64,000 nucleotides of DNA from an uncultured delta proteobacterium (GCA_963712115.1 CAVQGX010000032.1:107761-171760); one strand, 5' to 3'. Numbered from the stretch's first letter, positions 1,399-62,883 are shown. The notes: generated by a model not told the origin, from the letters alone. Translations and numbers: made by a program.

Positions 1399-1680
1399 GG
1401 TTAGCCTCTACCACACGGTGTAACTAAAGTATGGCGAATCGCTCCCGGATCATCGACTATGCACTAAGCACTAGGCACTTATAATAAGAAAATTTAACCG
1501 CTTGAAATAAAAAGTTGAATTATTCCCTTATTAGAAATTACTTTAAATAAATTATTTGAAAATTGGAGACTTAAGCTGGACATTCGGAACCTGGATCGTT
1601 GAGCTTCTAACTGGTCTTCTTGAGTAGTGCTTAGTGGTTATTCCCAAGTGCATAGTGGGCAAGGCCCCAATCCCTTTGCC

Positions 1681-1965
1681 CTAAATGACCCGGGGTACGA
1701 CAAACTGCGCCTCATTTGCCTCTGGAGCATTGTCAAGTGTTTGCTCTCTGGGCAAAGACTCCTTGACAGCATCAGCCCGAAAAGCGTTGTGCAGATCAAC
1801 CACGTGAGAGGTAGGATCGACCCCCATGGTATCCAGCTCGTTGAGCTTTTCCATATAGAGCAAAATCTTGTTCATCTGCTCTGTGAGGTTCTCTTTCTCC
1901 TCGGAGCTGATCTGCAAACGAGCAAGTCGCGCAACGTGTTCTACCTCTGCAATCGTAATTTTCAT
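1681..1965 (-). CDS. gatC: Amidotransferase subunit C
   Basis: MKITIAEVEHVARLARL...LNELDT.GV.PT.H...FVVPRVI; upstream of gatA. Confidence 0.95.
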   Translation of the reverse strand: MKITIAEVEHVARLARLQISSEEKENLTEQMNKILLYMEKLNELDTMGVDPTSHVVDLHNAFRADAVKESLPREQTLDNAPEANEAQFVVPRVI

Positions 1966-2154
1966 TTATATTTACCCAATATGTCAAATGCCTAAAATGT
2001 CTAAAGTGAGGTAAAGTGCCTAAAATTTCTAAAGAACTAAAGATGTGGGATGTGCGATGTGGGAAAACCGGTTGAGCAAATTAGCCTAGCAGAACTCTCA
2101 TATCCCTTATCTCATATCCACACATCCCATATCTTTAAATTTCGCAATTCGAAA

Positions 2155-2196
2155 TTGTCCTTCGGACTCCCACCCTTCGGGCGGGTTCCCGGTTTC
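2155..2196 (+). repeat. Short dispersed REP-like element, copy 1 (inverted copy at 42992-43034)
   Basis: TTGTCCTTCGGACTCCCACCCTTCGGGCGGGTTCCCGGTTTC matches the reverse complement of 42992-43034 apart from one extra C. Confidence 0.85.
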
Positions 2197-2308
2197 GCAA
2201 TTTAAAATTATAATCTCTGACCTCTTAGTTCTGCCGGCTGTCTGCTGTCTGCTGCCCGCCGCGCCCCCGAGTCTCCGCATGATCGCGTCTTTCAACAGGC
2301 ACTACTCC

Positions 2309-4414
2309 TCACTGGTTGGCCGAGGACACGGGTGAGTCTGGGACGGAAGAAGCTTCTCCTGGCGATGAAAATCCGTCCCTGCTGAAATATTCCAGATATT
2401 TCCGCCGCTGTTGGCGTAACATCTCAAAATCCACCTGGATCTCCTCCATCCGCCTCCGGTAAATAGTAATTAGAAAAGGGGGCTTGCTCACCTCTCCATC
2501 TGGGCCGACCGAGGCAGTACCCGCCACTCCAGGCAAAGCCTGTATTCGCAGGAGAGAATCACGGAGCATAGGTCGAGATGTCACCCCGGGCTGACGGAGG
2601 GCCTCCATAAGCAAGCGCATAGTATCATACGCCTGTGCCTCAGGGTACCCGGGCTTTCCCCCGAAAGTCTCCTCATAGCTCTGGACGAACTGGCTGGTGA
2701 GAGGTAGGCCGCTTCCTGAAAAAAAACCATCCACGAAAACAGCGTCCTGAAGATAGGGTGCGGCCATCTCGACTAGCTTTTGAGAATTCCACAGGTTCGT
2801 ACCCAACAGTTTCACACCTGTGACGTCGTGATATGCCAACTGGGGGGCAATCAGGCCCACCTGACTGTAGGCATCTGGGATAAAGATAGCATCAAAGTCC
2901 ACAATGGGAATCTCCTCTTCTTCAAGATCTCCGGGTGCTTCTCCCTTCAAGCCTGCTGACGAGCTTTCGCTAGCCTTCACTCCTTCTGTTCCATCGGTGG
3001 TTTCACCCTCGGGTCGAGGGTAGTAAAGACCAACCAGCTTTTTAATCTGGTCGGCAAAATCTGTCTGAGAGGGATCATAGGTTTCGATCCCTCTTACCTC
3101 AGCGCCCAACCGCTCCAGTTCATCCCAAAAGAGGTTCATTAATCTTGTGCCGTAACTGTCAGCAGGATAAAGAATGGCAAAACGTTTGTAATCAAGGCCA
3201 AGTACAGCATACTCCACCAGTGCCCTTGTCTGTTCCTCATTGCTGAGAAAGTAGCGGAATACGTAGTTACCAATGTGGCTTATACCCTCCTTTTGGGTGA
3301 GAGTAATTATGGGAACCCAGAGTTTCTGTGCTTCCTCAGCAGCCGCCTCAGCAGCAACCCGGCTTAGAGGCCCAATAATGGCAGCAACCTTGTTATCCAG
3401 AACAAGATCACGCACTGCAGCCACGGCAAGATCTGGGTCGCCACCACTATCTTTGATAATCAACTGAATATCTCCACGGTTATTCTTGAAGTCCTGGGCT
3501 GCCATTACTAGCCCCCGCAAAATCCTATCACCATAGGATTGATAGCGACCACTCAGAGGCAGTACGCAGCCGACAGCGGTCATATCAACTTTCAGCCACT
3601 CTTCAACTTTTTCGCTCATCCCTTTCCAGGTATCGACAAGTGGATGGTCAGGCAATCTCTCGATTAGTGCCTGTAATTGCTCTTGCGCCATACCAAACCG
3701 CCCACTCTCCATGTCTATTTCCACCAGACGGGTCTGCAGTTGAAGATTGGGAAAGGTGTCTGGATACTCAGCTACCAGCGCGTCTACTTCGTCTCTACCG
3801 AGGTGCTTTAGGACGATGTCCACCTTCGCAGCCAGAAAGATATGTTTGTCTTCCTCGGCGAGTTCGTATGACTTGACGTACCACTTTACTGCCTTGGCAT
3901 AGTTGAGTCGGGCCGCCTCAGCGTCACCCACAACTTCGGCAGCCACTGCTTTTTGAGATTTCTCAGGTAAATATTTTGTCAGAGACCTCCCGGTCTCCAC
4001 CGCGTCATTGAAACGTTCCAGCTTGAGATAGCAACGAAGCAGCCAGAGACGTGCCTCATCCCCCTCCGGCCTGACGGGGAACTCATTTATCACTTGTTGA
4101 AACCAGGAAGCAGCCTTTACGTAACTCTCCAAACGATAGTCAATTTCTCCTTGTCGAAGCAAGGCCCTCGCTGCCTGGGGACTTCGCGGAAAGGCCATAG
4201 CAAGCTCCCGGTACCGCTGGGATGCCTCCTCCAGGTTGCCCTCCTTAAAAACCTCTTCTGCCATAGCCAGCTTCTGTAGGGCCTCTTCATCGCCTACCTC
4301 AACTGGAGCCTTCACTGCTACCTCTTTTCTTGGCGGTAACAATGCACAGCCCATTAGAATGAATGGCAATAGCCAGAGAACCAATCCCCGGAAGATTTCT
4401 GCCCTAGAGTTCAT
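2309..4414 (-). CDS. LpoA-like lipoprotein (N-terminal TPR repeats plus periplasmic-binding-protein-like domain); putative penicillin-binding protein activator
   Basis: Lipobox LMGC, TPR-like helices, then VGCVLPLSG.Y...G, IIGPL, DFDAIFIPD, LLGTNLW, AQAYD. Confidence 0.75.
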   Translation of the reverse strand: MNSRAEIFRGLVLWLLPFILMGCALLPPRKEVAVKAPVEVGDEEALQKLAMAEEVFKEGNLEEASQRYRELAMAFPRSPQAARALLRQGEIDYRLESYVKAASWFQQVINEFPVRPEGDEARLWLLRCYLKLERFNDAVETGRSLTKYLPEKSQKAVAAEVVGDAEAARLNYAKAVKWYVKSYELAEEDKHIFLAAKVDIVLKHLGRDEVDALVAEYPDTFPNLQLQTRLVEIDMESGRFGMAQEQLQALIERLPDHPLVDTWKGMSEKVEEWLKVDMTAVGCVLPLSGRYQSYGDRILRGLVMAAQDFKNNRGDIQLIIKDSGGDPDLAVAAVRDLVLDNKVAAIIGPLSRVAAEAAAEEAQKLWVPIITLTQKEGISHIGNYVFRYFLSNEEQTRALVEYAVLGLDYKRFAILYPADSYGTRLMNLFWDELERLGAEVRGIETYDPSQTDFADQIKKLVGLYYPRPEGETTDGTEGVKASESSSAGLKGEAPGDLEEEEIPIVDFDAIFIPDAYSQVGLIAPQLAYHDVTGVKLLGTNLWNSQKLVEMAAPYLQDAVFVDGFFSGSGLPLTSQFVQSYEETFGGKPGYPEAQAYDTMRLLMEALRQPGVTSRPMLRDSLLRIQALPGVAGTASVGPDGEVSKPPFLITIYRRRMEEIQVDFEMLRQQRRKYLEYFSRDGFSSPGEASSVPDSPVSSANQ

Positions 4415-4486
4415 GTCCTTTTCACCGACCTCTCGTCTGGTAGCGCGGAGCGCTGTGCCCTTTGCGTTCTCCTTTGTGCACCTAAC

Positions 4487-4535
4487 AAAAAAAGGGTGCC
4501 TAACCTCACAAAACGAGGTCTTTGTAGCACCCTTT
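4487..4535 (-). terminator. Intrinsic terminator downstream of dnaK
   Basis: Minus strand: AAGGGTGC...GCACCCTT stem with an internal hairpin, followed by a T run. Confidence 0.7.
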
Positions 4536-4564
4536 GGCGGAATTAAGCAAGTGCCTATTGCCGA

Positions 4565-6487
4565 TTACTTCTTATCTTCGTCAACCTCCTCAAATTCTGC
4601 TTCCACCACTTCTTCCTCACTACCAGCAGCGCCAGAGGCGGCCTCACCCGGCTGTTGCTGAGCCTCCCCTTCCCTAGCTTTGGTTGCCTGCTGATACATC
4701 GCCTCCGCCACTTTATGAGAGGCCTGCATAAGTTCCTCTGAGCCCCGTTTAATGGCTTCGGCATCATCTCCTTCCATCGCGGTCTTAAGCTTTTGAACAT
4801 GCTCCTCTATGTTCTGCTTGGTAGCTCCGTCAACCTTGTCTCCCATTTCTCTTAGAGTTTTCTCAGTGTGATAAATCAGGGAGTCGGCATTGTTCTTGGC
4901 CTCAACCAACTCTCTCTTTTTCTTGTCCTCATCGGCATGCATTTCCGCTTCCTTGACAGCCTGCTTGATCTCCTCCTCACTCAAGCCACTGGAAGCGGTT
5001 ATGCGGATTGACTGCTCTTTGCCCGTTCCCAGATCCTTAGCCGAGACGTTCACAATGCCATTTGCATCGATGTCGAAGGTCACCTCGATCTGTGGGATTC
5101 CCCTTGGTGCCGGCGGAATGCCTACCAATTCAAAGCGGCCCAAGGTCTTGTTGTTGGCTGCCATCTCCCTTTCTCCCTGCAGCACATGGATAGAGACAGC
5201 CGGTTGATTGTCAGCAGCCGTGGAAAAGATCTGGCTCTTGCGAGTTGGGATGGTGGTGTTCTTCTCGATGAGCTTAGTCATCACTCCGCCAAGGGTCTCA
5301 ATTCCCAGCGACAGGGGGGTAACGTCCAGAAGCAGGACATCCTTGACGTCGCCTTTCAGCACACCGGCTTGAATGGCAGCCCCTACGCCAACCACCTCGT
5401 CAGGGTTCACTCCCTTGTGTGGCTCCTTGCCGAAGAACTCTTTTACCTTTTGCTGTACCCGCGGCACTCGGGTCATGCCGCCTACCAGTATGACTTCATC
5501 AATATCGGAAGTTTTCAAACCCGCATCTTTGAGGGCGGTTTGCATGGGGGGTAGCAACTTTTCAATAAGGTCTTCCACCATCGCTTCCAGTTTGGATCTG
5601 GTCAATTTTATGTTCAGGTGCTTTGGACCGCTGGCGTCGGCGGTGACAAAGGGCAGATTGATCTCGGTTTCCATGGAGGTGGAAAGTTCCATTTTTGCCT
5701 TCTCCGCAGCCTCCTTCAACCGCTGAAGCGCCATCTTGTCACTTCGCAAGTCGATCCCCTGGTCCTTGCGGAACTCATCCGCCAGCCAATCGATGATCCT
5801 CTGGTCAAAGTCCTCGCCACCCAGGTGGGTGTCACCATTTGTTGCCTTTACCTCGAAGACGCCTTCGCCAATCTCCAGAATAGAAATATCATAAGTTCCG
5901 CCACCCAGGTCAAAGACTGCAATCTTCTCGTCTATTTTCTTGTCTAGACCGTAGGCCAGTGAAGCTGCCGTGGGCTCGTTAATGATCCTCAGGACGTTCA
6001 GTCCGGCAATTTTCCCTGCATCCTTGGTGGCCTGGCGCTGACTGTCGTTGAAGTAAGCAGGTACGGTAATCACAGCATCAGTCACTTTCTCTCCCAGGTA
6101 GTCTTCAGCGGTCTGCTTCATCTTCTGTAAAACCATGGCCGAGATCTCCGCCGGGCTGTACTCCTTACCTCGAATCTCAATATGGGCATCTCCATTTTTG
6201 GCCTTAATAATTTTATAAGGACAAACTGTGATGTCTTGCTTTACCTCGGCGGAATCGTATTTTCTACCTATCAAGCGTTTGACTGCATAGACGGTATTTT
6301 CTGGATTGGTGATGGCCTGCCGTTTTGCCACCTGACCCAAAAGACGTTCACCACTCTCGGTGAAAGCTACAATAGAGGGGGTCGTGCGGCTTCCTTCGGC
6401 ATTTGTGAGGACCTTGGCCTCTTTTCCTTCCATCACCGCAACGACTGAGTTTGTGGTCCCCAAATCAATGCCGATAATTTTTCCCAT
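4565..6487 (-). CDS. dnaK: Chaperone DnaK (Hsp70)
   Basis: [44 protein letters not shown]. Confidence 0.99.
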
Positions 6488-6544
6488 TTTTTTCCTCCTT
6501 AATCTCCCATCCCGAATTTGGTTTCTTAGTCATGCCCCGCCTTA

Positions 6545-7249
6545 CTAAGCCTTTCTTACTGGTATTTTTACCTCGCCACTTTTTGCTCTCTTAGTCTCGG
6601 TGGGGTTTTGATCTCTTGTATCTCTTTCCGCCTCACTGGCTTGCTTGGACACAATTACCATGGCTGGTCGTAACAAACGTTCTTTGAGCATGTAACCTTT
6701 TTGAAGCTCCTTCAGCACAGTGTTGGGCTCCACTTTTGAACTTTCCTCCTGAGACACAGCTTCGTGGAAGTTGGGGTCAAAGGTTTTTCCTATCGCCTCT
6801 AATACGGTACAGCCAAGTCTAGCCAGGGCGTCAATGAAAACCTTGAGGGTCATGTTCAGACCCTCCACCAAACCCTCCTGATTAGGTGCGTCTGCTGAGT
6901 GTTGGAGGGCTCGTTCTAGGTTGTCTATCACTGGAAGCAGTTCGCGCATAAAGGTTTCGTTGGCGTAGCGAGTTTGCTCTTCTTTTTCTCGCTGCAGCCT
7001 TTTTTTGAAATTTTCAGCATCAGCAGCAGTGCGAAGTACCCGCTCCTCAGCTTGCTCAAGTCGACCCTCCAATTCCTTGATTTTCGACAGAAGACCATCC
7101 CTGTCAGCAGTCTCAGGGTCGAAAAACTCCTCTGCTTCCACTGCAGCTTTAGCTCTATCATCTTTCTCAGAAGTAACTTCCACCTGCTGCCCTTGCTCTT
7201 CCTCATCTTTTTCCTGAGGCTTTGCTGTTCGCTCTTTGTCCGAAACCAC
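6545..7249 (-). CDS. grpE: Nucleotide exchange factor GrpE
   Basis: ADAENFKKR, LLPVIDNLERAL, FDPNFHEA, QKGY.L.ERLLRPAMV.V; between hrcA and dnaK. Confidence 0.97.
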   Translation of the reverse strand: MVSDKERTAKPQEKDEEEQGQQVEVTSEKDDRAKAAVEAEEFFDPETADRDGLLSKIKELEGRLEQAEERVLRTAADAENFKKRLQREKEEQTRYANETFMRELLPVIDNLERALQHSADAPNQEGLVEGLNMTLKVFIDALARLGCTVLEAIGKTFDPNFHEAVSQEESSKVEPNTVLKELQKGYMLKERLLRPAMVIVSKQASEAERDTRDQNPTETKRAKSGEVKIPVRKA

Positions 7250-7314
7250 CCTGCATCCTCCATATGCTTCTATTAATAACGATTAGCGCTCAGTCAAGAC
7301 CCTCTGCCTTTATT

Positions 7315-7346
7315 ACAAAACAAAGCTCCCCAAAAAATTAGGGAGC
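7315..7346 (-). terminator. Possible stem-loop or terminator between hrcA and grpE
   Basis: Minus strand: GCTCCC-loop-GGGAGC followed by TTTGTTTTG. Confidence 0.5.
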
Positions 7347-7377
7347 CAGTAAAAAAAATAGAATTTTTTAATTAAAT

Positions 7378-8421
7378 TTAGAGAGTTTCTTCCAACATTT
7401 TGCTCAAGAGTTTGGCAGTGTAGTCCACTAAAGGAATAATCCGAGAATAGTCCATTCTAGTCGGGCCAATCACGCCGAGAGTGCCCAGAATTTCATCGCC
7501 GCTCGCATAAGGAGAAGTAATAAAGCTCACACTTTCCATGTCCAGCAACTCACTTTCAGAGCCAATAAAAATGTTTACTCCCCCAGCCGACATACTTTTG
7601 TCCAAGAGATCTATTATCCTACTCTTTTCCTCAAAAGCATCAAAGATGCGCCTCATCTGCACAACGTCAGCAAATTCTGGATTATCCAGGAGATTGGTCC
7701 TGCCTTCTATGTAGATCTCGCTATCTTCTATGTTCTCCTGCAAAGCTTTCTGACTTAATTCCAAGGCCTTGGAGAGTAAGCGTTCAAATAGCACTTTTTC
7801 CTTTTTCATCTCGTCCAGAAGCCGCGCCTTAACTTGATGGAGAGTAAGATCCTGTAGCATATCATTGAGATAACGGCTGTACTTATCCAGCTCCTCCTGG
7901 GAAATATCTCCATCGATCTCGAAAATCGTGTTGTGCACGATCCCGGCCTGAGAAACCAGAATGGTCATGACCATCTTTGCCCTCAGACGGACGAACTCAA
8001 TCCGCTTGAACACCGTCAGAGATAGTCGAGGTGTCAAGACCACACCAGCCTGATTGGAAAAGGATGAAAGAACCTTGGAGGTTTCTTTTAGCAACCCCTC
8101 AACCCGAGCCACTCCGCCTTTATAGGATCTCCTGATCCTTTCTCGATCTGCGTTGCTGAGTTGTTTTATTTTTAGGATCGAGTCTATATAGACCCTGAGG
8201 CCGAGCTCGGTGGGAATCCTGCCAGCCGAAGTATGAGGTTGATAAAGCAGACCGAGTTCCTCAAGGTCTGCCATGACATTACGGATTGTTGCCGGGCTAA
8301 CGTTCAAGCCGTAGCGTTTAGCTATAGCTCTGGACCCCACCGGCACACCACCGTTTATGTACTCGAGGATAATTGCCTCAAGTACTCGTCGAGTTCTTTC
8401 TCCCCGCACTAATTGTTTCAT
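7378..8421 (-). CDS. hrcA: Heat-inducible transcription repressor HrcA
   Basis: PVGSR.I, SPATIRNVMADLEELGLL.QPHTSAGRIPT, GVIGPTRMDY. Confidence 0.98.
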   Translation of the reverse strand: MKQLVRGERTRRVLEAIILEYINGGVPVGSRAIAKRYGLNVSPATIRNVMADLEELGLLYQPHTSAGRIPTELGLRVYIDSILKIKQLSNADRERIRRSYKGGVARVEGLLKETSKVLSSFSNQAGVVLTPRLSLTVFKRIEFVRLRAKMVMTILVSQAGIVHNTIFEIDGDISQEELDKYSRYLNDMLQDLTLHQVKARLLDEMKKEKVLFERLLSKALELSQKALQENIEDSEIYIEGRTNLLDNPEFADVVQMRRIFDAFEEKSRIIDLLDKSMSAGGVNIFIGSESELLDMESVSFITSPYASGDEILGTLGVIGPTRMDYSRIIPLVDYTAKLLSKMLEETL

Positions 8422-8433
8422 GGCCGCTTTATA

Positions 8434-8460
8434 TTAGCACTCATGTCTAAGGAGTGCTAA
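8434..8460. promoter_or_regulatory. CIRCE element (HrcA operator)
   Basis: Perfect TTAGCACTC-N9-GAGTGCTAA, 12 bp upstream of the hrcA start. Confidence 0.97.
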
Positions 8461-8462
8461 GG

Positions 8463-8491
8463 AAATTAGCAATCGGTCGATCCTTTGTCAA
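8463..8491 (-). promoter_or_regulatory. Sigma-70 promoter of hrcA-grpE-dnaK
   Basis: Minus strand: TTGACA-N17-TAATTT immediately upstream of CIRCE. Confidence 0.75.
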
Positions 8492-8553
8492 GACTCAAAT
8501 AGTGCGCATCTGGGCAAATACATAAGGTTGAACTTAGTTTCTCCATTAGCCCC

Positions 8554-8593
8554 AAAAAAAAGACCGTCTGGACGGGGCCACATCCAGGCGGTC
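8554..8593 (-). terminator. Intrinsic terminator
   Basis: GACCGCCTGGAT-GTGGCCCC-GTCCAGACGGTC followed by T8. Confidence 0.85.
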
Positions 8594-8672
8594 GGAGAAA
8601 GGAGAAAAAGAGTTGAAGAGTCAAGAAGGCAGGGCTTTCATCATTATGTTAACCTTACCATCCTTACTCGTT
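8554..8672 (-). ncRNA. Candidate sigma-54-dependent small RNA (~120 nt, CU-rich seed, own terminator)
   Basis: Bounded by a -24/-12 promoter (8684-8699) and an intrinsic terminator (8554-8593). Contains CUCUUUUUCUCCUUUCUCC and only a 7-codon ORF. Confidence 0.55.
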
Positions 8673-8683
8673 TCTACAATGAT

Positions 8684-8699
8684 AGCAAATTCCTTGCCA
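8684..8699 (-). promoter_or_regulatory. Sigma-54 (-24/-12) promoter
   Basis: Minus strand TGGCAAGGAATTTGCT = GG-N10-GC with TTGC. Confidence 0.7.
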
Positions 8700-8795
8700 T
8701 TGCAACCCGTGGATTGCATATTTATATCATATTGAAAAAGCTAATATTTTTTTTACTACTATCTACAACTTTTTAAATTAACTACCTGTGGAATG

Positions 8796-8839
8796 CATAA
8801 TCAGGACATAATCCGGACATAATCCGGACATAATCCGGA
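8796..8839. repeat. 4 x 11-bp tandem repeat CATAATCCGGA (candidate enhancer/UAS)
   Basis: cataatcagga cataatccgga cataatccgga cataatccgga, abutting the regulator stop codon. Confidence 0.9.
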
Positions 8840-10285
8840 CTATTTGAGAACATATCGAGTGCTCCGACCTCCGCCAACTCTTGCCACTATCTCCATTTCC
8901 ACCAGCTGACTCAGATCACGTCGGGCATGGCGATCGGAAATTTGGTTGATTTGGATATAGTAGTCGTTGGTTATATAACCGTTTTTCCTTATGAAATTTA
9001 TTGCTTTGACTTGGCGTGAATTCAGACCAAGATAGGGGAGCAAATCCCCAGATCCGTTCAGCTCTGGTCCTTTCAGGGCTTCCTCCGATGGTATGTCAGT
9101 GATCCCTGGAAGTCTTTTCTGTAATAACTCTTCCGCTAAGTCCTGGGGCCGAATTTCGTTACCGTCGCAGAGAATTACTGCCCGTTCAATGACATTCTCT
9201 AGTTCGCGGACGTTACCTAACCAGTCATACTGGTAAAAATACTTAATTGCCTCATGGCTTACATTTTTTAATGGAAGCCCGTTGGCCTTGGCCACCTTTC
9301 TGAGAAAATGGTGAACCAAAAGTGGTATGTCATCACGCCGTTCTCTGAGGGGGGGAATGTTGATGTGGACAACCTTCAAACGATAATACAAATCCTCCCT
9401 GAAACGTCCGAGCTCCACCTCCCGCTTGAGATCACGGTTGGAAGCGGCTACCAAGCGAGCATCCACCTGCAAGGTCACAGTACCGCCCACACGCTCAAAT
9501 CTCATTTCCTGCAGAACCCTTAGTAACTTCACTTGCAGAGCAGGAGACATATCACCTACTTCGTCCAAGAATAAGGTTCCGTTATGAGCCAGCTCGAAAC
9601 GACCTTTTCGTCTAGTGACAGCCCCGGTAAATGCACCCCTCTCGTGGCCAAAAAGCTCGCTCTCCAGCAGCGTTTCAGGTAAAGCTGAACAGTTAACCGA
9701 AACAAACGGTTTATCACTCCTGGGGCTGTTGAAATGTATAGCCCTGGCGATAAGTTCCTTGCCTGTACCTGACTCTCCGGTGATCAGCACTGATGCCCGT
9801 GTTTGCGCTACCTTCTCAATAATCTCATACACCTGGCGCATGACCTTGCTTTTGCCCACAATGTTGCCGAACTTGAAGCGCTCCTGCAGTTCCTGGCTGA
9901 GCAAACGGTTCTCTTCCTTGAGCCGGTGCATCTCTAGGGCTTTACGGATGGTTAGTATCAGTTCTTCATTTTTGAAAGGCTTAGTAATGTAATCAAAAGC
10001 GCCCCGCTTCATAGCTTCCACAGCTTTTTCCACTGTGGCGTAGGCTGTCATCATGATCACAGGGATTTCCGGTTGAAGACCCCGCAATTGAACCAAAAAC
10101 TCCATCCCGTCCACACCTGGCATCCTCATGTCAGTTATGACCAGATCCAGGTCATGACTGGTTATAACCTCAAGAGCCTCACTGGCATTGTCACAGGTAA
10201 TCACCTCATAACCCGCGTCTGCCAAGAGTACCTCTAGAACCAGGAGATAATTCTTTTCGTCGTCAACGATGAGAATGGTTTCCAT
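8840..10285 (-). CDS. Sigma-54-dependent response regulator (REC-AAA+) with an atypical C-terminal winged helix
   Basis: ILIVDDE, DMRMPG, GESGTGKE, ESELFGHERGAFTGA, FREDLYYRL, W.GNVRELEN; C-terminus RQVKAI..I...GYIT...ARRDLSQLV....V..VGGGRSTRY. Confidence 0.93.
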   Translation of the reverse strand: METILIVDDEKNYLLVLEVLLADAGYEVITCDNASEALEVITSHDLDLVITDMRMPGVDGMEFLVQLRGLQPEIPVIMMTAYATVEKAVEAMKRGAFDYITKPFKNEELILTIRKALEMHRLKEENRLLSQELQERFKFGNIVGKSKVMRQVYEIIEKVAQTRASVLITGESGTGKELIARAIHFNSPRSDKPFVSVNCSALPETLLESELFGHERGAFTGAVTRRKGRFELAHNGTLFLDEVGDMSPALQVKLLRVLQEMRFERVGGTVTLQVDARLVAASNRDLKREVELGRFREDLYYRLKVVHINIPPLRERRDDIPLLVHHFLRKVAKANGLPLKNVSHEAIKYFYQYDWLGNVRELENVIERAVILCDGNEIRPQDLAEELLQKRLPGITDIPSEEALKGPELNGSGDLLPYLGLNSRQVKAINFIRKNGYITNDYYIQINQISDRHARRDLSQLVEMEIVARVGGGRSTRYVLK

Positions 10286-10475
10286 GCTTTTCTCTTGATG
10301 TGCGACCTGACCGAGCAGTAATGTCTAACTTACAAATACCAAATTCCTAGCCACCATGCATCACGCATGGAGCATAGGGCATGGGGCATGGAGTTAATAT
10401 GTTGTTTATTTTTACGCTATGCTCCACGCTCCATGCGCCATGCTAACTCTGCTTGCTGCCAGCTTTTCGCAGTGC

Positions 10476-11936
10476 CTAATGTTCTGGGTTCACCGGCAAA
10501 GCAATGATAATAGCTGTTCCTTTGCTCTCTAACTGCGAGAGCTCTTCCGGGGGTGGACTCTTGATATCGACCGTGCCTCCGTGGCTTTCGATTATGTTTC
10601 GGACTATGGGAAGTCCTAACCCGGTTCCTGTCTTGCGGGTAGTGAAGAAGGGATCGAATATTTTCCCTATATTATTCCCAGAAATACCACAACCGGTGTC
10701 CACTATGATGACCTCAAGGAAATCCTCTCGGGGGTCCCGATACCGAGTTACTACCCGGATAGTGCCCCCATCGTCTAAAGCTTCCATGGCATTAACGAAG
10801 ATGTTCAGAAAGGCGCGATAGAGAAGATCGCCATCGGCGATGACTGGCCTGCCATTTTCGGCAAAGCGAAGTTCCACCCTTATGCCTCGTCGCTTGAGTT
10901 CAACCTCCAGGAACTTCAGGTTTCTTTCCAGAACCTCATCTACTCTGCATTCAGAGTAGTTCGGAGTGGTGGGACGGGCAAAATCCAGAAAATCAGTGAC
11001 GATCGAGTTGAGACGACTAGTCTCCTCCATAATTATTTCACCCAACTGTTTTTTGGGGTCATCCTCCTCCATTTTATGGTGTAGGAGTTGGGCGGTGGAA
11101 CCAATGATTCCAAGTGGATTCCGGATCTCATGGCTGATGCCAGCCACCATCTTACCTAAGACAGCCATCCTCTCAGCCTGATTAAGCTGATCCTCCAAGC
11201 GGCGCCTCTCTTCGGCTCTTTTAGCGATGATCCTTTCTCCCCTCTTTACAATGAAACGTAAGACGAAAAACAGAAGACTCATCACCCCCAGAAAACTCGC
11301 GATAATTATGTTCTGGAAACGGGTGATGGCTGCATAATCCTCAGAGATATCTTGGGTAATTTCGAACACCCCCAGAATACGGCCATGGCCCCGCCCCAGA
11401 GGTCTTTCCATGCGAAATGGGATGTAAGTCTTGAGCTGCCTTTGCTTCGCCACTACTCCCAACTCGAAACCAAGAAAGCTTCCACGAGAAATCAGCTGGG
11501 ATGAGGATTTGCCCTCCCGGGCCAACTTAAAATCGATTCCCCCCAACCCTGTGAGCCCAACTAAGGAACGATCGGTACTATAAGTAACCACCTCATTTAT
11601 ATCATAGACATCCACCCTGTATAGATTGAATCCGTGAATGGTGCTACTAACTACCTTGTCCATAAGATCATATTGTTTGGGGTTGGCAAGCTGTATCCGA
11701 CCGTATTTGAGCACCGTGGGCAGGACAAATTGGGTGAAAACTTGGTGGTTCAAGTTTGTGGCCACGAAGAGGGCGTATTGCTCGCTTTTTCTGAGAAGTT
11801 CGTTCTTGGCCCGTTGAGAGATGAAAATGGAGAGCAATAAGGTCGGGATGAAGATCACCACCAAACTGGTCAATGAAAAATACTTGACCAATCTAAAAGG
11901 CTTGATGCTTTCCCTGGCGTCCGCACCTAGCTGCAT
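10476..11936 (-). CDS. Membrane sensor histidine kinase, cognate to the downstream regulator
   Basis: Two TM segments, H-box SHEIRNPL, N-box NIFVNA, DTGCGI, FDPFFTT, GTGLGL. Confidence 0.95.
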   Translation of the reverse strand: MQLGADARESIKPFRLVKYFSLTSLVVIFIPTLLLSIFISQRAKNELLRKSEQYALFVATNLNHQVFTQFVLPTVLKYGRIQLANPKQYDLMDKVVSSTIHGFNLYRVDVYDINEVVTYSTDRSLVGLTGLGGIDFKLAREGKSSSQLISRGSFLGFELGVVAKQRQLKTYIPFRMERPLGRGHGRILGVFEITQDISEDYAAITRFQNIIIASFLGVMSLLFFVLRFIVKRGERIIAKRAEERRRLEDQLNQAERMAVLGKMVAGISHEIRNPLGIIGSTAQLLHHKMEEDDPKKQLGEIIMEETSRLNSIVTDFLDFARPTTPNYSECRVDEVLERNLKFLEVELKRRGIRVELRFAENGRPVIADGDLLYRAFLNIFVNAMEALDDGGTIRVVTRYRDPREDFLEVIIVDTGCGISGNNIGKIFDPFFTTRKTGTGLGLPIVRNIIESHGGTVDIKSPPPEELSQLESKGTAIIIALPVNPEH

Positions 11937-12008
11937 GTATGCAACCCCTACCCTTTTGGCCTATTTTACACTACCTTTTAGATATTTTCTGCCCGTCCCT
12001 TTTTCCAA

Positions 12009-12941
12009 CTAAAAGCTCAAACGTAAGTGGAGCGCCAGTCGATCTTTCCCAGGTTCCATACCGAAAGAAAGCCGGTATTTTTCCTTGAGCTCCCGGCGAT
12101 ATTTACTTTCATCTTTCTGATTCTCTTCTCTGGCTGCTTGGGCTGCACTCCGAATTCCGCCTACATACCAGCCCAATTCGAAGAATACCAGGATTCCGCC
12201 AAGAACCGGGCTGTCATGTTCAAAGGCCAAAACTGCTCCGGCTATAAAAAGAGTGTTGAGTAAAAAAGATGAGGCAGCCTGTCCTGGGCGACCCGCATAA
12301 AGGTGGCCTGAACCTGGCAAAACCGCGGACAGTGCTCCTGCCATTACTGGAGACCTCTCCTTTTCTTCCGGCCGCTGGTGCAATGCTTGGCGAAGTGATC
12401 TTGCTCTGGGATAGTGTTTACTCTGTGGCTGGATCCGCTCAAGGGTTGCCATTGCTGACTTATATCTGCCGCTGTCGATCTGGAGCCACGCCAAGCTTAG
12501 GTACACGTTATCAAGTTCTGTATAGTCGGGATACCTCTCAATAAACTGCTTGGCCCAATAGATGGCCCTCGGGTAACGTTCCTGTTCCTCCCGGATCGCT
12601 ATCATTTCTAACAAGGCCTCAGGCCCAACCGGCTCTTCCGCCCTAGAATTGAATAATCTGATCAGGTAACTAAAAGCTTTATCACCCTTACCCTCCCGAC
12701 GATAGCACCTGCCAATTTGGAGTTTGGCCTGATCATTCCTGTCATCTTTTGGAAAGAGAAAGACAAAACGTTGGTACTCACTCGAGGCCCGGTAATAGTC
12801 TTGCTTGTCATACAGGTGATTTGCAAAGTCCCACAGACGATCCGCCCTTTCCTCAGCCGCGACTGGCTGGGCCAGTACCGTGAAGTGTAAAAGAAAAATC
12901 CAGCACCAGCCAAATCTGCCTAGTAATAGGGAGCGAACCAT
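12009..12941 (-). CDS. Exported TPR protein with C-terminal hydrophobic segments
   Basis: Signal peptide, BamD-like TPR helices, ALSAVLPGSGHLYAG followed by hydrophobic stretches. Confidence 0.7.
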   Translation of the reverse strand: MVRSLLLGRFGWCWIFLLHFTVLAQPVAAEERADRLWDFANHLYDKQDYYRASSEYQRFVFLFPKDDRNDQAKLQIGRCYRREGKGDKAFSYLIRLFNSRAEEPVGPEALLEMIAIREEQERYPRAIYWAKQFIERYPDYTELDNVYLSLAWLQIDSGRYKSAMATLERIQPQSKHYPRARSLRQALHQRPEEKERSPVMAGALSAVLPGSGHLYAGRPGQAASSFLLNTLFIAGAVLAFEHDSPVLGGILVFFELGWYVGGIRSAAQAAREENQKDESKYRRELKEKYRLSFGMEPGKDRLALHLRLSF

Positions 12942-13498: not shown

Positions 13499-13589
13499 AC
13501 TTCTTTCTGTCCTCTCTCACCTGGTAATATGGCACTGTGCCGCGGGACGGGAGGTCGCACCCATCTCACAGTTTATTGTCGTTTACTGC

Positions 13590-15008: not shown

Positions 15009-15410
15009 AGCCCCATCCGCCCATATTAGGAATTAATCAGCAGCTAGCTATCAGCCATCAGCAAGATATGATCTTGCATCAGCTGACCACTGAAATCTGA
15101 TAGCTGACAGCTCGACTATCATTAGTGATTTCAAGGGATTTGAGCGAAACCTTACCCCAAGCATACTGGTTTGTCAATGGAGGTAGGCAACAGGAGTTTC
15201 GCCAAGAATATTATTGTGACATAGGCCACGGGAAGGCTACTCCACAACGATCATATTCGCGCCATTTATTGGCAGAGTTCCTGTTCAGGAAGCACCACAT
15301 CTTCATGCAACCCCTTTCAAGGCTGAGATTGTTAAGGATAGGTTGCTCAGATGCTCGTTGTTTCGCAGCCTCCCCTTTCGGCCTTTGCTGATGTCTCTTC
15401 TGAGTGACCT

Positions 15411-19497: not shown

Positions 19498-19511
19498 TGA
19501 AAGACCTCGAC

Positions 19512-19749: not shown

Positions 19750-19768
19750 CAGCCAAATCCTCTAGCGC

Positions 19769-22195: not shown

Positions 22196-22603
22196 TTTCC
22201 ATTGTCCGTCAATTAGGATGGGAAACAACAGTAGCCAAAACCTATCCCTACAAACTTCTTCAGCTGAATATGGCAATATCTACTGAGAAAAACAAAGGCA
22301 GAAAAGGGTTGGTTCTCCCCACCCCAAGAGTAGCCCATTGAGACATGGACGATCCACAGGTAAGGAGTCTCAGATTAGAGTTAACCCGAGCGCTGTCCCC
22401 AGTGAAATGAGTAAAACTATCACAAGCTGTGCGATGGTGTCAATCTGCGCAGCGCCTTGCGCGAAGCGCTCCCCGCTTCGCGCTACGAGACGGGAGGTCG
22501 GGCGAGACGGGAAGTCTGGTATATTTAATAAACCTCGTCTCGCTCGTCTCGCCCGTCTCGCAATTAATCGTGCTAGTTCCTAGCCGTACAGACTTCCCGC
22601 TCC

Positions 22604-25281: not shown

Positions 25282-25404
25282 CTCATTTCACATTTCGTAT
25301 TTCACATCTATCATTTATCATTTTCTTTAAGGGCGAGTTCTGGTCTCCTCTCTGAATCTGCAATGACATAATGACCAATGAGAGATGAGAAATGATAAAT
25401 GGCG

Positions 25405-26534: not shown

Positions 26535-26753
26535 CTGGAGTGTTGGAGCATTCAAAATATCAAATTCCTAACACCAAATCTCAGGGCTTTAGGTGTCAGG
26601 TTTCAGGTGTCAGGAGAAAAGACACAAGTGCTGAAACCTGTCGAAGATCCCGTCTGAAGCGAAGCGGCAGCGGGGAACACTGAACACTGAAACCTCAGTC
26701 GTTGTGACTTGGCATTTGGAACTTTTAGTCACTCTGGTACTCCAGTACTCCAG
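26535..26753. repeat. Three nested inverted short-period repeat arrays plus a REP-like insert
   Basis: The pairs TGGAG/CTCCA, CAAAT/ATTTG and TCAGG/CCTGA are arranged concentrically. Confidence 0.75.
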
Positions 26754-27920: not shown

Positions 27921-28088
27921 AAATCCGAATATCGAAATGCGAAACAATATCGAAATCCCAATTTTCAAATATCAAAACAGTATTTTACTTAAGTAAACTG
28001 ATCCAAGAAAAAGACTCACGCTCTTTTGAATTTCGGATTTTGGACATTTGAATTTGTTTAGGATTTCGTGCTTCGGATTTCGAATTTT
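27921..28088. repeat. Inverted pair of degenerate heptamer arrays (AAATNCG / CGNATTT)
   Basis: aaatccg aatatcg aaatgcg ... versus tttcgga ttttgga ... tcggatt tcgaatt. Confidence 0.8.
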
Positions 28089-38650: not shown

Positions 38651-38868
38651 GCGCGTAGCGCTTAAGCGAGAAGGGCCAGACGAGGATAATCAGCAGGCAG
38701 CAGTTAGCGGGCAGGCTAAAAATACTATCTGTACAATCATTGCTGTTTGCTGCGAGCTGACCGCTGCCAGCTTAATAACACTGGCTGAACCGGCTTAACG
38801 ATTTCAACCACTTAATCGGGTTTAAAGATTTGACTAATCGACTATTTGACCAACCAACTTTCTACCCT

Positions 38869-40229: not shown

Positions 40230-40497
40230 AGAATCCAGGCCCAATGGTATTTAAGATTTAAGATTGCAGAATGAAGACTTCGGAATCTCATGACTACTGC
40301 AATTCACCATGGGTAAATCTAAAATCTACAATCTAAAATCTGCAATCTAAAATCTGCAATCTTTTGAGCTCTGACCTGGCTCAGAGTACCAAGCTTTCTA
40401 AGATTGAATAAACCCTGCCAGATTATATTTGGTTAACAGCCCGGCACTTCTTGACAACACCGTCCTCGAAACAGGAAGGTAAGCTTTCAAAAAGTCC

Positions 40498-40828
40498 CTA
40501 GCCCGGATGTTTCATGAATTGGTGTCACGAGACCACGAAGATGGGCGTGCCACCGGGTAGACGATTGCGGATTGCGGAATGCGGATTGAAAATTTGCTGA
40601 AAAGCTCGTGAGAACCAGAGAAAAAACGGCGAAATCTGAACTGCTAAGTTCGATATCATCTAATCAAAAATCCGAGATCCGAAATCCAAAATCGAAGTCG
40701 AGGCTTACCTGAATGGTACCTCGCAGGGTGAACTTGTCCTGAGCGTAGCCGAAGGAACGCCCGAGGACGCACGGAAGGACGGCCATATCCGTGGTCGTAG
40801 TAAGCGATTCATGAAACATCCGGGCTAG
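40498..40828. mobile_element. MITE family A, copy 3 (carries a heptamer-array cassette and a CCTGAGCGTAGCCGAAGG insert)
   Basis: Perfect TIR CTAGCCCGGATGTTTCATGAAT...ATTCATGAAACATCCGGGCTAG. Confidence 0.88.
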
Positions 40829-42757: not shown

Positions 42758-42991
42758 CAATCAAAGGTTAAAAGCACCACAAAGCTCACATGGGATATGC
42801 CTCGAAGCGCATATGGAGCCAAGCACAGAGCGTTAGAGTTAGGGAGCCAGGAGCCAGGAGTCAGAATTCAGGAGAAAAGCAATCAAGATTGTGACCTCTC
42901 AACTACTTGCTAATGGCTACTTGCTACTGGCTACTCGCTACTGTATTCTTTGATTGCGGATTTGGGATTTCAAAAGGCGAAATCCACGACT

Positions 42992-44029: not shown

Positions 44030-44269
44030 CCCCGTCTAAAGACAGCTGCAGATTCCAACTCGCAGCTATTTAAGCTGATCACTGTGAAATATGTACCTTT
44101 GACACAAAAGACTTTAAACACTATAAAAGCTACAAAAGCTATAAAGACTAGAAAAGTGAGAAGCGGAACCATAACTGCAAAAACCCTTGTATTCCGGCAC
44201 TTTCTGGCCTTTCACTCCTTTCTCGCTTATACTAGGAGCTCATGATTTGCGCAGTGTGGGTTTGATCTA

Positions 44270-45199: not shown

Positions 45200-45283
45200 A
45201 ATTAGCACTACTCAAGAAGATTAGTCCGAGGTTCATCGTCTAGGTCCAAGTGCCAAGTTCCTAGTTCCCTAAAAAGCAGCCCG

Positions 45284-54941: not shown

Positions 54942-55108
54942 TAATTGGTGCTCATCCGAAAACAACGGTTTTCGGACTCTCGCCATCAGCGATCAGCCTT
55001 CAGCTTTCAGCTAAATATACATAAATCCAATAACTTAAGCTGAATGCTGACTGCTGAAAACTGACAGCTCCAGCCGGAAATCTTTGGTTTCCGGCTGGAC
55101 ACTAATTA
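54942..55108. mobile_element. MITE-like element, family B, with internal inverted TCAGC/GCTGA heptamer arrays
   Basis: Imperfect 22-bp TIR TAATTGGTGCTCATCCGAAAAC / GTTTCCGGCTGGACACTAATTA. Confidence 0.55.
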
Positions 55109-60945: not shown

Positions 60946-61316
60946 TCACAAATCATTCCGGAGCTACTACTCCAGTTCTGTGTTAGCATGTAATGTGCCA
61001 AGTGGTGGGATCACGCCTGGACTTGGCGGTGGTGGGAGAAGCGTCAATCATAGACTCTTGGGAAAAATCTTGAAAACTGAGAGGGAAGGGTCAAGCTGTT
61101 ATGGTTTATCTTTGCTCATTTCCTCATATATCCGGTCCCAGCAGCGCTTGGTCGCATTGAGCCCACATGTCACGCAAAAGGGTGGCGATTTCAAAAATGT
61201 CCAATGTCAAGGGCTGCCTCCGTTTTCAAATGCTAGAATACAGGTTTAGGTGCAATAAAAAAGCCAGTTTAAAGAGCTGTGTGGTGGAACAAAAAAAGAA
61301 TGCTAAAAATAAAAAA

Positions 61317-61505
61317 ATGGAGCTTTCCTGGCGGATCGTCATCCTCACAGCTTTGGGACTCACAATTTTATGGTTCTACCTTATGCCAGAATCCCTCCTG
61401 TTTGATGAAGAATCGCTCAGTAACTGGGAGTGGGTGGTCGAGTCTGTAGTCCGATTTGTGGCTTGTCTGGGTGTAAGTATTGGAGCCTTTGTCCACTGGA
61501 GATAA
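61317..61505 (+). CDS. Small two-TM membrane protein
   Basis: MELSWRIVILTALGLTILWFYL...VVRFVACLGVSIGAFVHWR; weak RBS. Confidence 0.45.
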   Translation: MELSWRIVILTALGLTILWFYLMPESLLFDEESLSNWEWVVESVVRFVACLGVSIGAFVHWR

Positions 61506-61917
61506 TTGGGTGGTCAGCATGAAGGGGTGGAATAAAAAAGCATTTAGCATTTATTACTTCAATGTGAAGCCAAAGAAGAAGCTGAGCCGAAGCTCCGCAA
61601 GGGTGTTTGGGAAATTAATAGTCCAACCCTACGCTAGATATGGTAGCTGATTCTCAAACCGCAGAGTGTGGAGTATGTGATATGAAATTTCAGTAGACCA
61701 ATGTTAACTTCAGATAGCTAACTCTATACCACATTCGCAAATTGGGAAATCACGGCCAGAAGGATGCGAAATAAATCTCATATGCAAAAAAGAGTCTTGA
61801 CCCGATTAGTCCACTGTGAGAAAAAATATCAATCTTTAGCAACACTCGTATAGGGAGAGAATCATTCCGCGTCAATACCAAGAAGACATTTCGCTCATTG
61901 AAGACCTCAAAAGCACA

Positions 61918-62457
61918 TTGGGTAGACAGCCCAAGGTTTTGAATGTCGGATCAGGTCCCGGGCAGGTGGAAGGCTATCTGAACGTTGACCTTTGTCTACT
62001 CGAAGGTGTGGATGTAGTTGCCGACCTCCATAAAATCCCTTGGCCCTTCAGAGATGATCAATTTGAGATTATTCTGTGTAATCATTATATTGAACATGCC
62101 AAGGACATAGTGCAAACTATGGAAGAAATAAACCGCATTGGCAAGAATGGGTGCCAGGTTGTAATTCGGACGCCCTATTTTGCCAATTATGAATCTTTTC
62201 GTGATCCCACCCATCGTTGGCACCTAACTTGGGAATCTCTTGACTACTTCACAACTAATAGCCCACGCTCAAGTTATTTTACGAAATGTAAATTTAGGAT
62301 GGTGAAGAAAAAACTCACTTTCGCCCACCCTTGGAGACACCCGGGTTACTATCTGTTTCGCCTTAATGTAAGAACATACGAGAAGTATTTCTCTCACCTT
62401 TTCCCTGGCACCTGGCTAATTGTACAAATGGAAGTGAGCAAGGAATTGAAGGACTAG
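61918..62457 (+). CDS. Class I SAM-dependent methyltransferase-domain protein
   Basis: VLNVGSG, NVD, DVVADL...PWPF.D, H.IEH, E..RI.K.G, DPTH. Confidence 0.85.
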   Translation: MGRQPKVLNVGSGPGQVEGYLNVDLCLLEGVDVVADLHKIPWPFRDDQFEIILCNHYIEHAKDIVQTMEEINRIGKNGCQVVIRTPYFANYESFRDPTHRWHLTWESLDYFTTNSPRSSYFTKCKFRMVKKKLTFAHPWRHPGYYLFRLNVRTYEKYFSHLFPGTWLIVQMEVSKELKD

Positions 62458-62883
62458 AAGAAGGACGTTGGGCTTAACTGCCTTGAAGCTGAAATTCCTG
62501 CAACCAAGCATAGCATTCTAAGCTAATAACACAGATGGAGAGCTTCTTACAGACTCACTGAATGTAGTTACTTACCCTTTTCCCCTTCCACGACCTGAGC
62601 TTGTCGAAGGTTAGCCGCGATCTTATACCTCTTACAACAAATGACAGCGAAGCGGACTGACGCCGAAGGCATATGACGGCGCAGCCAAGTGACAAATGTG
62701 AAATGAAGAAATGCCAAATGATAAATCCCACGCTCCATGCTCTATGCCCTATGCTCCATGCCTTATCGCCATGCGCCATGCTATGATTCAACGGAGATCT
62801 TGTATGACCTGCTGCCCTCTGGTAGTATTATACTTTCAAGCTGCAACGGGCTGCTCTTTCTTTTTTTAGAGAAAGGATCAATC

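Follow-up and report, generated by a model that had tools for sequence, protein, structure and literature searches.

What are the short tandem arrays between the genes of an uncultured delta proteobacterium, and why do so many of them stand as inverted pairs? The question is raised by the stretch of DNA analysed here (GCA_963712115.1 CAVQGX010000032.1:107761-171760; 64,000 nucleotides, referred to as the window), for which a preliminary description had listed pairs of degenerate 7-9-nt repeat arrays facing each other in complementary orientation and had proposed that they are small mobile cassettes or recombination substrates, mostly empty. Across the genome that holds the window (G000; 4.9 Mb, 70 contigs), such an element has a loop of 15-200 nt between two complementary arms of 3-6 tandem 7-9-nt units each, the 5' arm being the richer in G, and a few per cent of the copies carry one small gene in the loop, coding for either a four-helix-bundle protein (PF05635/TIGR02436) or a GxxExxY nuclease of the PD-(D/E)XK type. 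Arms, loop and cargo are inherited as one unit, and the families are dispersed and nested, vary between sister species in whether a given spacer holds them, and have been flipped in orientation in place. We consider it probable that the inverted array pairs of the window belong, as copies without a gene, to a lineage-wide class of non-coding hairpin cassettes; these would spread by a mechanism without target-site duplication, and their cargo would probably act in trans.

Heptamer arrays are abundant throughout one genus

Tandem arrays were called with Tandem Repeats Finder (TRF) and compared with an order-3 Markov simulation as the genome background. In the window, TRF returned 61 rows, including 35 at period 7, and recovered the single-sided arrays at 1986-2026, 44104-44156, 45245-45268 and 62686-62782. 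Genome-wide, 2,115 period-7 rows were found against 80 in the simulation (about 26-fold), with smaller numbers at period 8 (426 vs 117), period 9 (541 vs 98) and period 14 (455 vs 29). Most of the period-7 rows (1,864 of 2,115) lay mainly outside a crude mask of longest open reading frames (ORFs), which covered 79% of G000. In an autocorrelation of intergenic DNA, a check that the preliminary description had proposed, the self-match at lag 7, computed without TRF, was 0.297, compared with about 0.257 at adjacent lags and 0.244 in ORFs, with echoes at twice and three times this lag (14 and 21). Arrays of period 7-9 and multiples thereof span 91,481 bases, or 1.87% of the genome. The units hold 4-5 positions constant and vary in the rest. 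A total of 274 canonical heptamer units were distinguished; the impression that each intergenic pair has a different unit holds as far as this diversity goes, but the three most frequent units recur in 144, 120 and 103 arrays.

The window codes for GatCA, HrcA-GrpE-DnaK, sigma-54 regulators, SelB, HemA, FtsK and similar proteins. The closest named relatives of its DnaK belong to metagenome-assembled genomes (MAGs) titled Syntrophobacterales (89%), Desulfobacterales (81%) and Desulfacinum (80%), which rules out a cyanobacterial host, and marine-sediment and estuary metagenome runs contain at least half of the sampled words from an 8-kb stretch. The host is an uncultured Syntrophobacterales-like sediment bacterium. 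Same-genus comparisons drew on 17 congener genomes and wider profile searches on 31 genomes across the class; these congeners and relatives are numbered G002, G003, G007, G012 etc. Period-7 rows reached 4.3 per 10 kb in G000, compared with 0.16 in the simulation, and 1.6-4.5 in six congeners (29-80 kb sampled from each), while the sister genus showed 0.83 (120 kb) and five genomes of other families 0-0.5 (20-60 kb each). The abundance of heptamer arrays is thus a genus-wide, lineage-specific trait. Outside these samples, 5.9-7.4 period-7 rows per 10 kb were counted at DnaK-bearing loci of one unclassified, one Planctomycetia and one Chloroflexia MAG, where the density equals that of G000.

Arrays pair in inverted orientation and fold into hairpins

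For the pairing analysis, an array was scored as paired if a reverse-complement partner with a score of at least 10 followed within 250 nt, and direct, complement-only and reverse-only partners served as controls. Among 2,164 merged arrays, 397 had a reverse-complement partner, compared with 99 direct, 50 complement-only and 40 reverse-only matches; at a score of at least 14 the corresponding numbers were 160, 25, 2 and 3. At the level of TRF consensus units, neighbouring arrays were inverted in 202 cases and direct in 25. Periodicity and inverted pairing both exceed their controls, the lack of such an excess having been named beforehand as a possible refutation, and for roughly one array in three an inverted partner is the norm. 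The spacer between the arms had a median of 41 nt (5-95%: 15-193) and the arm a median of 22 nt. All arrays listed in the preliminary description were seen, and in minimum-free-energy DNA folds compared with dinucleotide shuffles the left array paired with the right array in 12 of its 12 pairs, with z at or below -2 in eight; the folds beginning at 25281 (z -0.7), 38690 (-0.5), 40565 (-1.7) and 42840 (-1.4) were weak, and the weak pair at 38690-38771 was not called by TRF. The frequency of the pairs had been overstated. Considering spacers of at least 60 nt (37 in the window, 2,878 genome-wide), a 7-9-mer array occurs in 17 of 37 and 1,161 of 2,878, and a pair by the automated criterion in 7 of 37 and 332 of 2,878, which is not "most intergenic regions"; the preliminary list itself covered 11 spacers.

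The placement of the pairs brings in the view that nothing here is mobile: the arrays would have arisen locally where the polymerase slipped, most readily by 7 nt, the hairpins would have been selected as stabilisers or terminators at RNA 3' ends, and the small genes would merely happen to lie in repeat-rich spacers. We regard such a purely local origin as unlikely. It is favoured by the density of pairs per kb, which was 0.45 for convergent spacers, 0.41 for tandem ones and 0.24 for divergent ones, and by the position of the pairs in tandem spacers, where 47 of 246 start within 10 nt after the upstream stop codon, compared with 28.6 +/- 4.2 under uniform placement. The 51 pairs located in divergent spacers speak against it, as does the lack of a T tail on the window hairpins in 1-20000, the part of the window scanned for terminator-like sites; 29 such sites were found there and none coincided with an array pair. 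No Rfam family was matched at gathering score in the window. A repair defect was also tried as the cause of the array excess and rejected: MutS was present in 31 of 31 genomes and SbcD above cut-off in none of the 31, neither of which is informative on the genus-level excess, leaving that excess unexplained by either under a local origin.

Polarity, shared cores and turnover among congeners

Within a unit family, the same unit forms the 5' arm in 199 of 202 pairs, a figure that becomes 137 of 139 if only families of at least four members are considered. Since flipping a whole element leaves this polarity unchanged, it reflects descent or a polar mechanism. After masking of the arrays, 96 of the 239 cores of at least 25 nt matched another core elsewhere, mostly one with the same arm unit, and some core families contain the loop in either orientation. 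Moreover, elements nest inside each other, and one sits in an unrelated element that resembles MITEs (miniature inverted-repeat transposable elements). Fixed polarity and non-repetitive cores common to distant loci would be unexpected if each hairpin had been born independently by slippage.

When 27 orthologous spacers were aligned with those of up to seven relatives, the presence of pairs was patchy in sister species. None of the four relatives in which the flanking genes are retained (G002, G007, G010, G018) has the pair at 10358-10444, and the spacer 42758-43216 measures 459 nt in G000 compared with 12-211 nt in the others, its element at 42843..42943 being absent in G002, G007, G012 and G013. 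The element at 25283..25401 is common to G002, G007 and G012, and the one at 26591..26691 is absent in G012, where the spacer is 40 nt long. Directly past the stop codon at 22604, five congeners were seen by eye to have hairpins with four different units between them, three being called by the automated criterion; a site that keeps a hairpin despite a differing unit is a point for local origin and selection of the structure. Variation of copy number between orthologous elements is another: the element between gatC and gatA keeps its position and unit in G002, G007 and G013 with a varying number of copies. This conservation indicates that some elements are old. The gat-spacer element is also homologous to an element in a different spacer of G007 and G012, and within G000 the single match to its core was the element itself, which is therefore not multi-copy there. 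The element in the pyrD-selB spacer is without a core in G000.

Full-length alignments were reversed between species at 3 of the 27 spacers, with forward matches that were short and arm-sized. The reversed elements are that between gatC and gatA (inverted in G013 and G011), 25283..25401 (in G012) and 26591..26691 (vs G007), and a reversed full-length alignment means that the whole element was flipped in place or re-inserted. Contigs assembled from four metagenome and metatranscriptome runs, the only form in which these runs were compared, showed high summed (multi-copy) depth over the repeats; some joined across 22475-22593 and 27849-28130 with short sides, and the joints listed showed no strand change, contigs being uninformative on RNA ends and minor orientations. 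The comparison of orthologous spacers that the preliminary description called for thus revealed patchy presence, different units and flips. Past mobility or turnover of small cassettes is indicated by the dispersed arm-plus-core families together with the patchy spacers, and a role as recombination substrates by the flips of whole elements.

A minority of elements enclose a PF05635 or GxxExxY gene

G000 contains 14 matches to PF05635, the Avd-like four-helix-bundle family of the 23S rRNA intervening sequences (IVS). Eleven of these genes are flanked by an inverted match with a score of at least 15, located 12-170 nt from the match, with direct and complement-only controls at 12.5 or below. By comparison, 5 of 300 random ORFs of 100-200 aa from the same genome were flanked at this score, a difference that speaks against small genes lying by chance in repeat-rich spacers. 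Six of the 14 matches are broken or partial and form a decay series. Of the five PF13366 genes (GxxExxY, PD-(D/E)XK nuclease), four are flanked at a score of at least 13. The small ORFs that were to be sought between array pairs elsewhere in the genome, four-helix-bundle and GxxExxY proteins, are thus enclosed in most cases. Among the 41 long-range inverted pairs of G000, those with spacers of 390-530 nt each hold one ORF of about 120 codons, identified with Pfam and NCBIfam as PF05635/TIGR02436 'four helix bundle protein' and in one case as PF13366/TIGR04256 'GxxExxY protein'; the other long-range pairs enclose ordinary genes between two separate hairpins. In relatives, 40 PF05635 loci were sampled (28 congeneric, 11 from other families of the class and 1 from the sister genus): inverted arrays with a score of at least 15 flank 21 of the 28 and 9 of the 11, with spacers of 381-625 nt, and the single sister-genus locus has a flank score of 17.5. 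The window's contig has neither a PF05635 nor a PF13366 match, and its copies are consequently gene-less; as had been stated, no mobilising enzyme is encoded in the window, where no cargo gene or transposase was found.

Filled and gene-less copies share their units. PF05635 cassettes carry GCATGGA, the 9-mer of 22486-22561, the 9-mer of 1986-2040, GAGGTCA, GCATAGR and AAATCCT, which they share with gene-less pairs of the window. The 5' arm of 10358..10444 matches PF05635-cassette arms of G014 and of G000 contig C18 with a score of 18, and window 22478-22570 aligns collinearly to the left and right ends of the PF05635 cassette at G000 C30:122658-123201, with only about 20 nt between the ends. 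Polarity is shared as well. For the comparison of arms, 51 cassettes were set beside the 397 gene-less pairs: the 5' arm has more G than C in 42 of the 51 (C>G in 4) and in 271 of the 397 (C>G in 112), and 170 of the 397 gene-less 5' arms match a cassette 5' arm at a score of at least 12, compared with 14 in the wrong polarity (113 vs 4 at a score of at least 14). The description of the window pairs as mostly empty cassettes is thereby largely supported.

Arm and cargo diverge together. Mean arm similarity was 0.74 for protein pairs with an identity of at least 0.8 (13 pairs), 0.47 at 0.6-0.8 (24 pairs) and 0.20 below 0.45 (880 pairs), and the correlation was reached by 3 of 999 label permutations. 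This co-divergence appears to demonstrate linkage of arm and gene, not yet specificity; if it points anywhere, it may be to lineage-specific sequence, and not to the recognition by periodicity or structure that the preliminary description had suggested. It also bears on the idea that the arrays are putative binding sites, one unit for each subunit of a pentameric four-helix-bundle (or other host) protein on DNA or RNA, and that the hairpins are regulatory or architectural and not selfish. The typical arm of 3-6 units (median 22 nt), the 4-5 constant positions of the units and the co-divergence of arm unit and cargo protein would all fit this idea, as would homology of the PF05635 proteins to the solved structure 2gsc: a cargo protein matches this PDB entry at 9e-19, and the title cited for it in PMC10053308 names a homopentamer of four-helix bundles. 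Many families of G000, however, have no cognate gene in G000 (CACTAGG accounts for 144 arrays, and a CACTAGG-armed cassette was found only in G009), and sister species do not keep the pairs at the same spacers. We consider a purely regulatory or architectural role quite unlikely.

The genomic setting of several arrays and cassettes deserves mention. At G000 C30:121200-125100, an SOS-type operon with lexA and the gene for a Y-family DNA polymerase has a four-helix-bundle cassette in every spacer, three in all and in alternation with the genes; two further cassettes of this kind, each of them decayed, lie among nuo genes on contig C42. At C33:131138-131735, arrays of the same unit occupy both spacers adjoining the ribosomal protein L18 gene in a ribosomal protein operon. 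The number of PF05635 matches and the period-7 density were correlated with a Spearman coefficient of 0.77 across 13 related genomes, which are not independent of each other.

Results that weigh against spreading cassettes, and the search for a partner

A number of results weigh against the reading of the pairs as cassettes that have spread. Complementarity between the two arms of an element (0.63) does not exceed that between arms of different elements of the same family (0.66). Because of this, complementarity is kept at the level of the family unit and not of the single hairpin; the arms of an element thus appear to lack compensatory maintenance, and an origin by mirror copying, or arm-to-arm homogenisation within an element, was rejected on the same comparison. 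At distances of 250-1,750 nt no inverted excess was found (50 inverted vs 49 direct among 486 arrays sampled). Filled cassettes must therefore be a small minority, and a general gene-in-cassette signal was discarded; only the two small cargo families stand out. With 51 cassettes sampled, 227 of the 397 gene-less arms match none at a score of at least 12. Many of the close protein pairs are probably orthologues, so that the co-divergence of arm and cargo may be plain linkage. Coding remnants in empty loops were sought and rejected, PF05635 being detected in none of the 177 gene-less cores of at least 45 nt; empty copies may derive from filled ones or filled from empty. The excess of pairs just after stop codons is modest.

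The same holds for the traces of a mobilising activity. In 202 pairs, the longest direct match between the flanks equalled that of permuted flanks at every length of 3-10 nt (duplications of 2-3 nt would escape this comparison), so that no target-site duplication was seen, which is also a point for a local origin. No transposase lies between the arms, since the ORFs of long-range pairs with proper spacing code for PF05635, PF13366 or ordinary genes. A gene resembling those for REP-associated tyrosine transposases (RAYTs; REP, repetitive extragenic palindrome) was found in 11 of 17 congeners as well as in relatives with few repeats, and is not linked to the arrays. These findings, unfavourable as they are to our preferred reading, also bear on the possibility that the pairs are ordinary MITEs or REPINs (REP doublets forming hairpins) moved by a transposase encoded elsewhere, such as that of an insertion sequence (IS), TnpA of the IS200/IS605 type or a RAYT. 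Terminal inverted arms and many intergenic copies are what such elements would have, four Y1-transposase homologues are encoded in G000, and an unrelated abundant MITE-like element is found in the same genome. The flanks of the four Y1 genes, however, bear other hairpins and not heptamer arms, and this together with the patchy distribution of the RAYT-like gene led us to reject RAYT/IS200 as the mobiliser; in addition, no target-site duplication accompanies the pairs, and 274 units are too diverse for one transposase that recognises its ends by sequence. We judge this explanation highly improbable.

Two further partners were considered. A reverse transcriptase acting with the Avd-like protein was rejected, as PF00078 had no match in G000, and in the congeners its matches were patchy (only 6 of 17) and not linked to the arrays. 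PF00636, an RNase III domain detected in 27 of 31 genomes, had no match in G000, G002, G003 and G012, nor did PF14622 in G000; the lack of an RNase III domain weakens IVS-like RNA excision as an explanation for G000. These absences too weigh against the cassette reading, and the missing RNase III is either a subclade loss or an assembly gap. By DnaK identity, G000, G002 and G012, three of the four genomes without a match, are close. The single 23S gene found in G000 measures 3,007 nt for 2,925 model positions and has neither an ORF-sized insertion nor an internal array pair. Heptamer hairpins lie in the spacers on either side of this gene (C2:48761-48845 and C2:52332-52400).

A model for the cassettes

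If the pairs of the window are indeed gene-less hairpin cassettes, their history may be pictured as follows. Copies would spread by a mechanism that does not duplicate the target site, and cargo proteins would probably act in trans on their own arm family. Arm length would then shift by slipped-strand mispairing in unit-sized steps, recombination between the arms would invert the core, and copies would be lost by deletion. As RNA, the elements would form long stem-loops within operon spacers, with a mild excess close behind stop codons, and these may be tolerated or may be mildly useful as signals for processing or stability.

A wider generalisation can be formulated, which we hold to be possible and put forward tentatively: bacterial heptamer repeats, which have lacked an explanation since 1990, would represent the arms of hairpin cassettes of a widespread class that leaves no target-site duplication and whose autonomous copies encode an Avd-like pentameric protein or a GxxExxY nuclease, each protein lineage recognising its own 7-9-nt unit (perhaps one per subunit) and driving the copying, inversion or protection of its family, empty copies included, with the 23S rRNA IVS as the special case of a cassette that landed in rRNA.

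The tie between repeat and gene matters on both sides. Heptamer repeats make up about 1.9% of G000, and comparable shares have been reported in other lineages, yet they are without an accepted origin or function; PF05635 and GxxExxY proteins are very common 'hypothetical' proteins, and PF05635 is known only from rRNA IVS and its likeness to Avd. Shared units, fixed polarity, co-divergence and the decay series merge the two puzzles into one question, namely whether the protein binds or cuts its own array. In practical terms, hairpins that break assemblies, alter spacer length and flip in place matter for operon prediction, binning and scaffolding of sediment metagenomes.

Elements and neighbouring features of the window

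In the gatC-gatA spacer, the gene-less hairpin at 1455..1658 has CACTAAG/CACTAGG arms and an AT-rich core of about 150 nt (z -3.0). It is followed by a single-sided 9-mer array at 1986..2040, also found in G002 and G007, whose unit is the 5' arm of two decayed PF05635 cassettes on contig C42, and by a hairpin with GATGTGG and CCACATC-type arms at 2042..2137 (arms of 17 nt, 94% complementary; z -2.1). The GCATGGA/TCCATGC hairpin at 10358..10444 (z -3.5) separates the genes of a sensor kinase and a sigma-54 response regulator. Hairpins with ATCAGC and GCTGA-type arms are located at 15039..15112 (z -2.1) and at 54982..55069 (z -4.3), the latter within a longer repeat (about 170 nt) with dispersed copies in 5 of 5 congeners searched. 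The hairpin with 9-mer arms at 22486..22561, directly after a stop codon, had a fold z of -6.0. A weak CATTTCA/TGAAATG hairpin (25283..25401; z -0.7) separates an APH-like gene from der, and the TRF-called hairpin at 26591..26691 belongs to the CAGGTGT/CAGGTTT family with a conserved loop. The divergent spacer at 27921..28088 contains a long degenerate hairpin of AAATCCG-type units with 60-nt arms that are 70% complementary (z -3.7). Further downstream are the weak inverted CAGC/GCTG arrays missed by TRF (38690..38771; z -0.5), a hairpin with AAGATT and AATCT arms (40249..40363; z -2.6), a hairpin of a dispersed arm-plus-core family of six copies (40563..40693; z -1.7) inside the MITE-like element at 40498-40828, and a hairpin with GGAGCCA and CTACTGG-type arms (42843..42943; z -1.4), an element that is nested in another hairpin elsewhere in G000. 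Among the arrays without a partner are a 9-mer array called by TRF at 44104..44156, the remnant of a CACTAGG-armed element with a deleted core in the pyrD-selB spacer (45245..45268), which is intact in G002, G012 and G007, and two adjacent heptamer arrays, CAAATGA followed by CCATGCT, called by TRF at 62686..62782.

Other repeats and structures share these spacers. The MITE-like element (40498-40828, 35011-35281 and 19512-19718) is bounded by inverted repeats of 22-24 nt that are almost perfect and varies in its middle part; many copies of its ends occur in 5 of 5 congeners searched, and it is the copy at 40498-40828 that contains the heptamer hairpin. A dispersed GC-rich hairpin of about 40 nt lies between AAATTCG-type arrays at about 2150-2200 and about 42960-43010, and has the opposite orientation in the orthologous spacer of G011 (gatC-LppC). 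It recalls the small dispersed repeats reportedly found by Elhai within heptamer arrays of Nostoc. Four copies of an 11-mer (8796-8840) directly precede a sigma-54 response-regulator gene, and arrays in that spacer are also present in G002, G007 and G010. Between the convergent pyrD-like and selB genes, a perfect 15-nt palindrome flanked by A and T runs (45271-45301) may plausibly be a terminator for both directions, which sets it apart from the heptamer hairpins. A stretch of about 170 nt (22277-22450) on the upstream side of the binding-protein gene 21071-22276 is conserved in five congeners, in which the adjacent hairpin is replaced; this stretch, which has no Rfam match, may be a leader or regulatory RNA.

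Comparison with known systems

Like REP sequences, bacterial interspersed mosaic elements (BIMEs), the REPIN-RAYT system and MITEs, the pairs are short, non-coding, hairpin-forming and multi-copy intergenic elements that are sometimes nested and are gained or lost between relatives. They differ in that their arms are tandem arrays of variable length and not a fixed palindrome, and in that no RAYT or IS partner was found: the target-site duplication and the autonomous transposase with the same ends that define MITEs were not detected among the elements analysed, as is the repeat-flanked RAYT that defines REPINs. In window 1-20000, they likewise lack the combination of GC-rich stem and T tract that characterises intrinsic terminators. 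As regards invertons (invertible promoter switches), which are marked by both orientations in one population and by an invertase, the observations are orientation differences between species at 3 of 27 spacers and contig joints with no change of strand.

Heptamer repeats named STRR (short tandemly repeated repetitive sequences) were reportedly described from cyanobacteria by Mazel and colleagues in 1990. TAACTGA direct repeats have been reported from Beggiatoaceae, cyanobacteria and Bacteroidetes, with 169 direct sets and one inverted set in the available text of MacGregor 2015 (PMC4679880). The arrays studied here resemble both in being abundant, intergenic, lineage-restricted tandem heptamers without an accepted function; those repeats are described as direct, whereas here about a third of the arrays are paired in inverted orientation, in a Syntrophobacterales-like host. 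The resemblance of PF05635 to Avd, the accessory protein of diversity-generating retroelements (DGRs), is noted in the available portion of PMC10053308, and three cargo proteins also match the bAvd Pfam model, two of these matching NCBIfam DivGenRetAVD in addition, all below cut-off. As a reverse transcriptase was detected in only 6 of 17 congeners and not in G000, the elements described here are not DGRs.

The IVS of Coxiella burnetii 23S rRNA, as described by Warrier et al. 2016 (PMC4990558), has a stem of 28 bp in which RNase III cuts, together with an S23p ORF and tandem heptamers. Both there and here, a long stem of terminal inverted repeats surrounds an ORF of about 120 codons of the PF05635 family; the tandem heptamers of the IVS vary in number by strain, and the IVS is regarded there as a selfish element of unknown mobility. 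The Coxiella element, however, lies in helix 45 of the 23S rRNA, from which RNase III cuts it out, whereas the present elements stand between protein genes, most copies are ORF-less, the 23S gene is free of an ORF-sized insertion and no RNase III domain was found in G000. The window copies thus share with the IVS type the long inverted-repeat stem, and not the PF05635 ORF in the loop or the insertion in 23S helix 25 or 45.

The closest precedent for the paired arrays comes from Xanthomonas. In the parts of Rehm et al. 2015 (PMC4692102) available, GGGAATC arrays of X. campestris and X. axonopodis form 70 and 75 convergent pairs able to fold into stem-loops, arrays vary strongly between the two species, GGGGA(T/C)T arrays are reported from Nostoc, and polymerase slippage with a favoured 7-nt slip is cited as an idea of Mrazek. 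Here as there, tandem heptamers with 4-5 conserved positions occur above chance between genes, opposite-strand arrays nearby form stem-loops, and length and sequence differ strongly between close species at the same gene pair. The Xanthomonas and Nostoc arrays, in contrast, are presented in that text with one G-rich unit per genus and no enclosed genes, compared with the 274 units, fixed polarity, shared cores, nesting and gene-bearing copies found here. No paper linking intergenic heptamer hairpins to PF05635 or GxxExxY gene cassettes was found in a search that left most subscription journals outside. Inverted heptamer arrays were thus already known; the cassette with its two cargo families, the polarity rule and the co-divergence of arm and protein form a variant that no paper found in this search describes.

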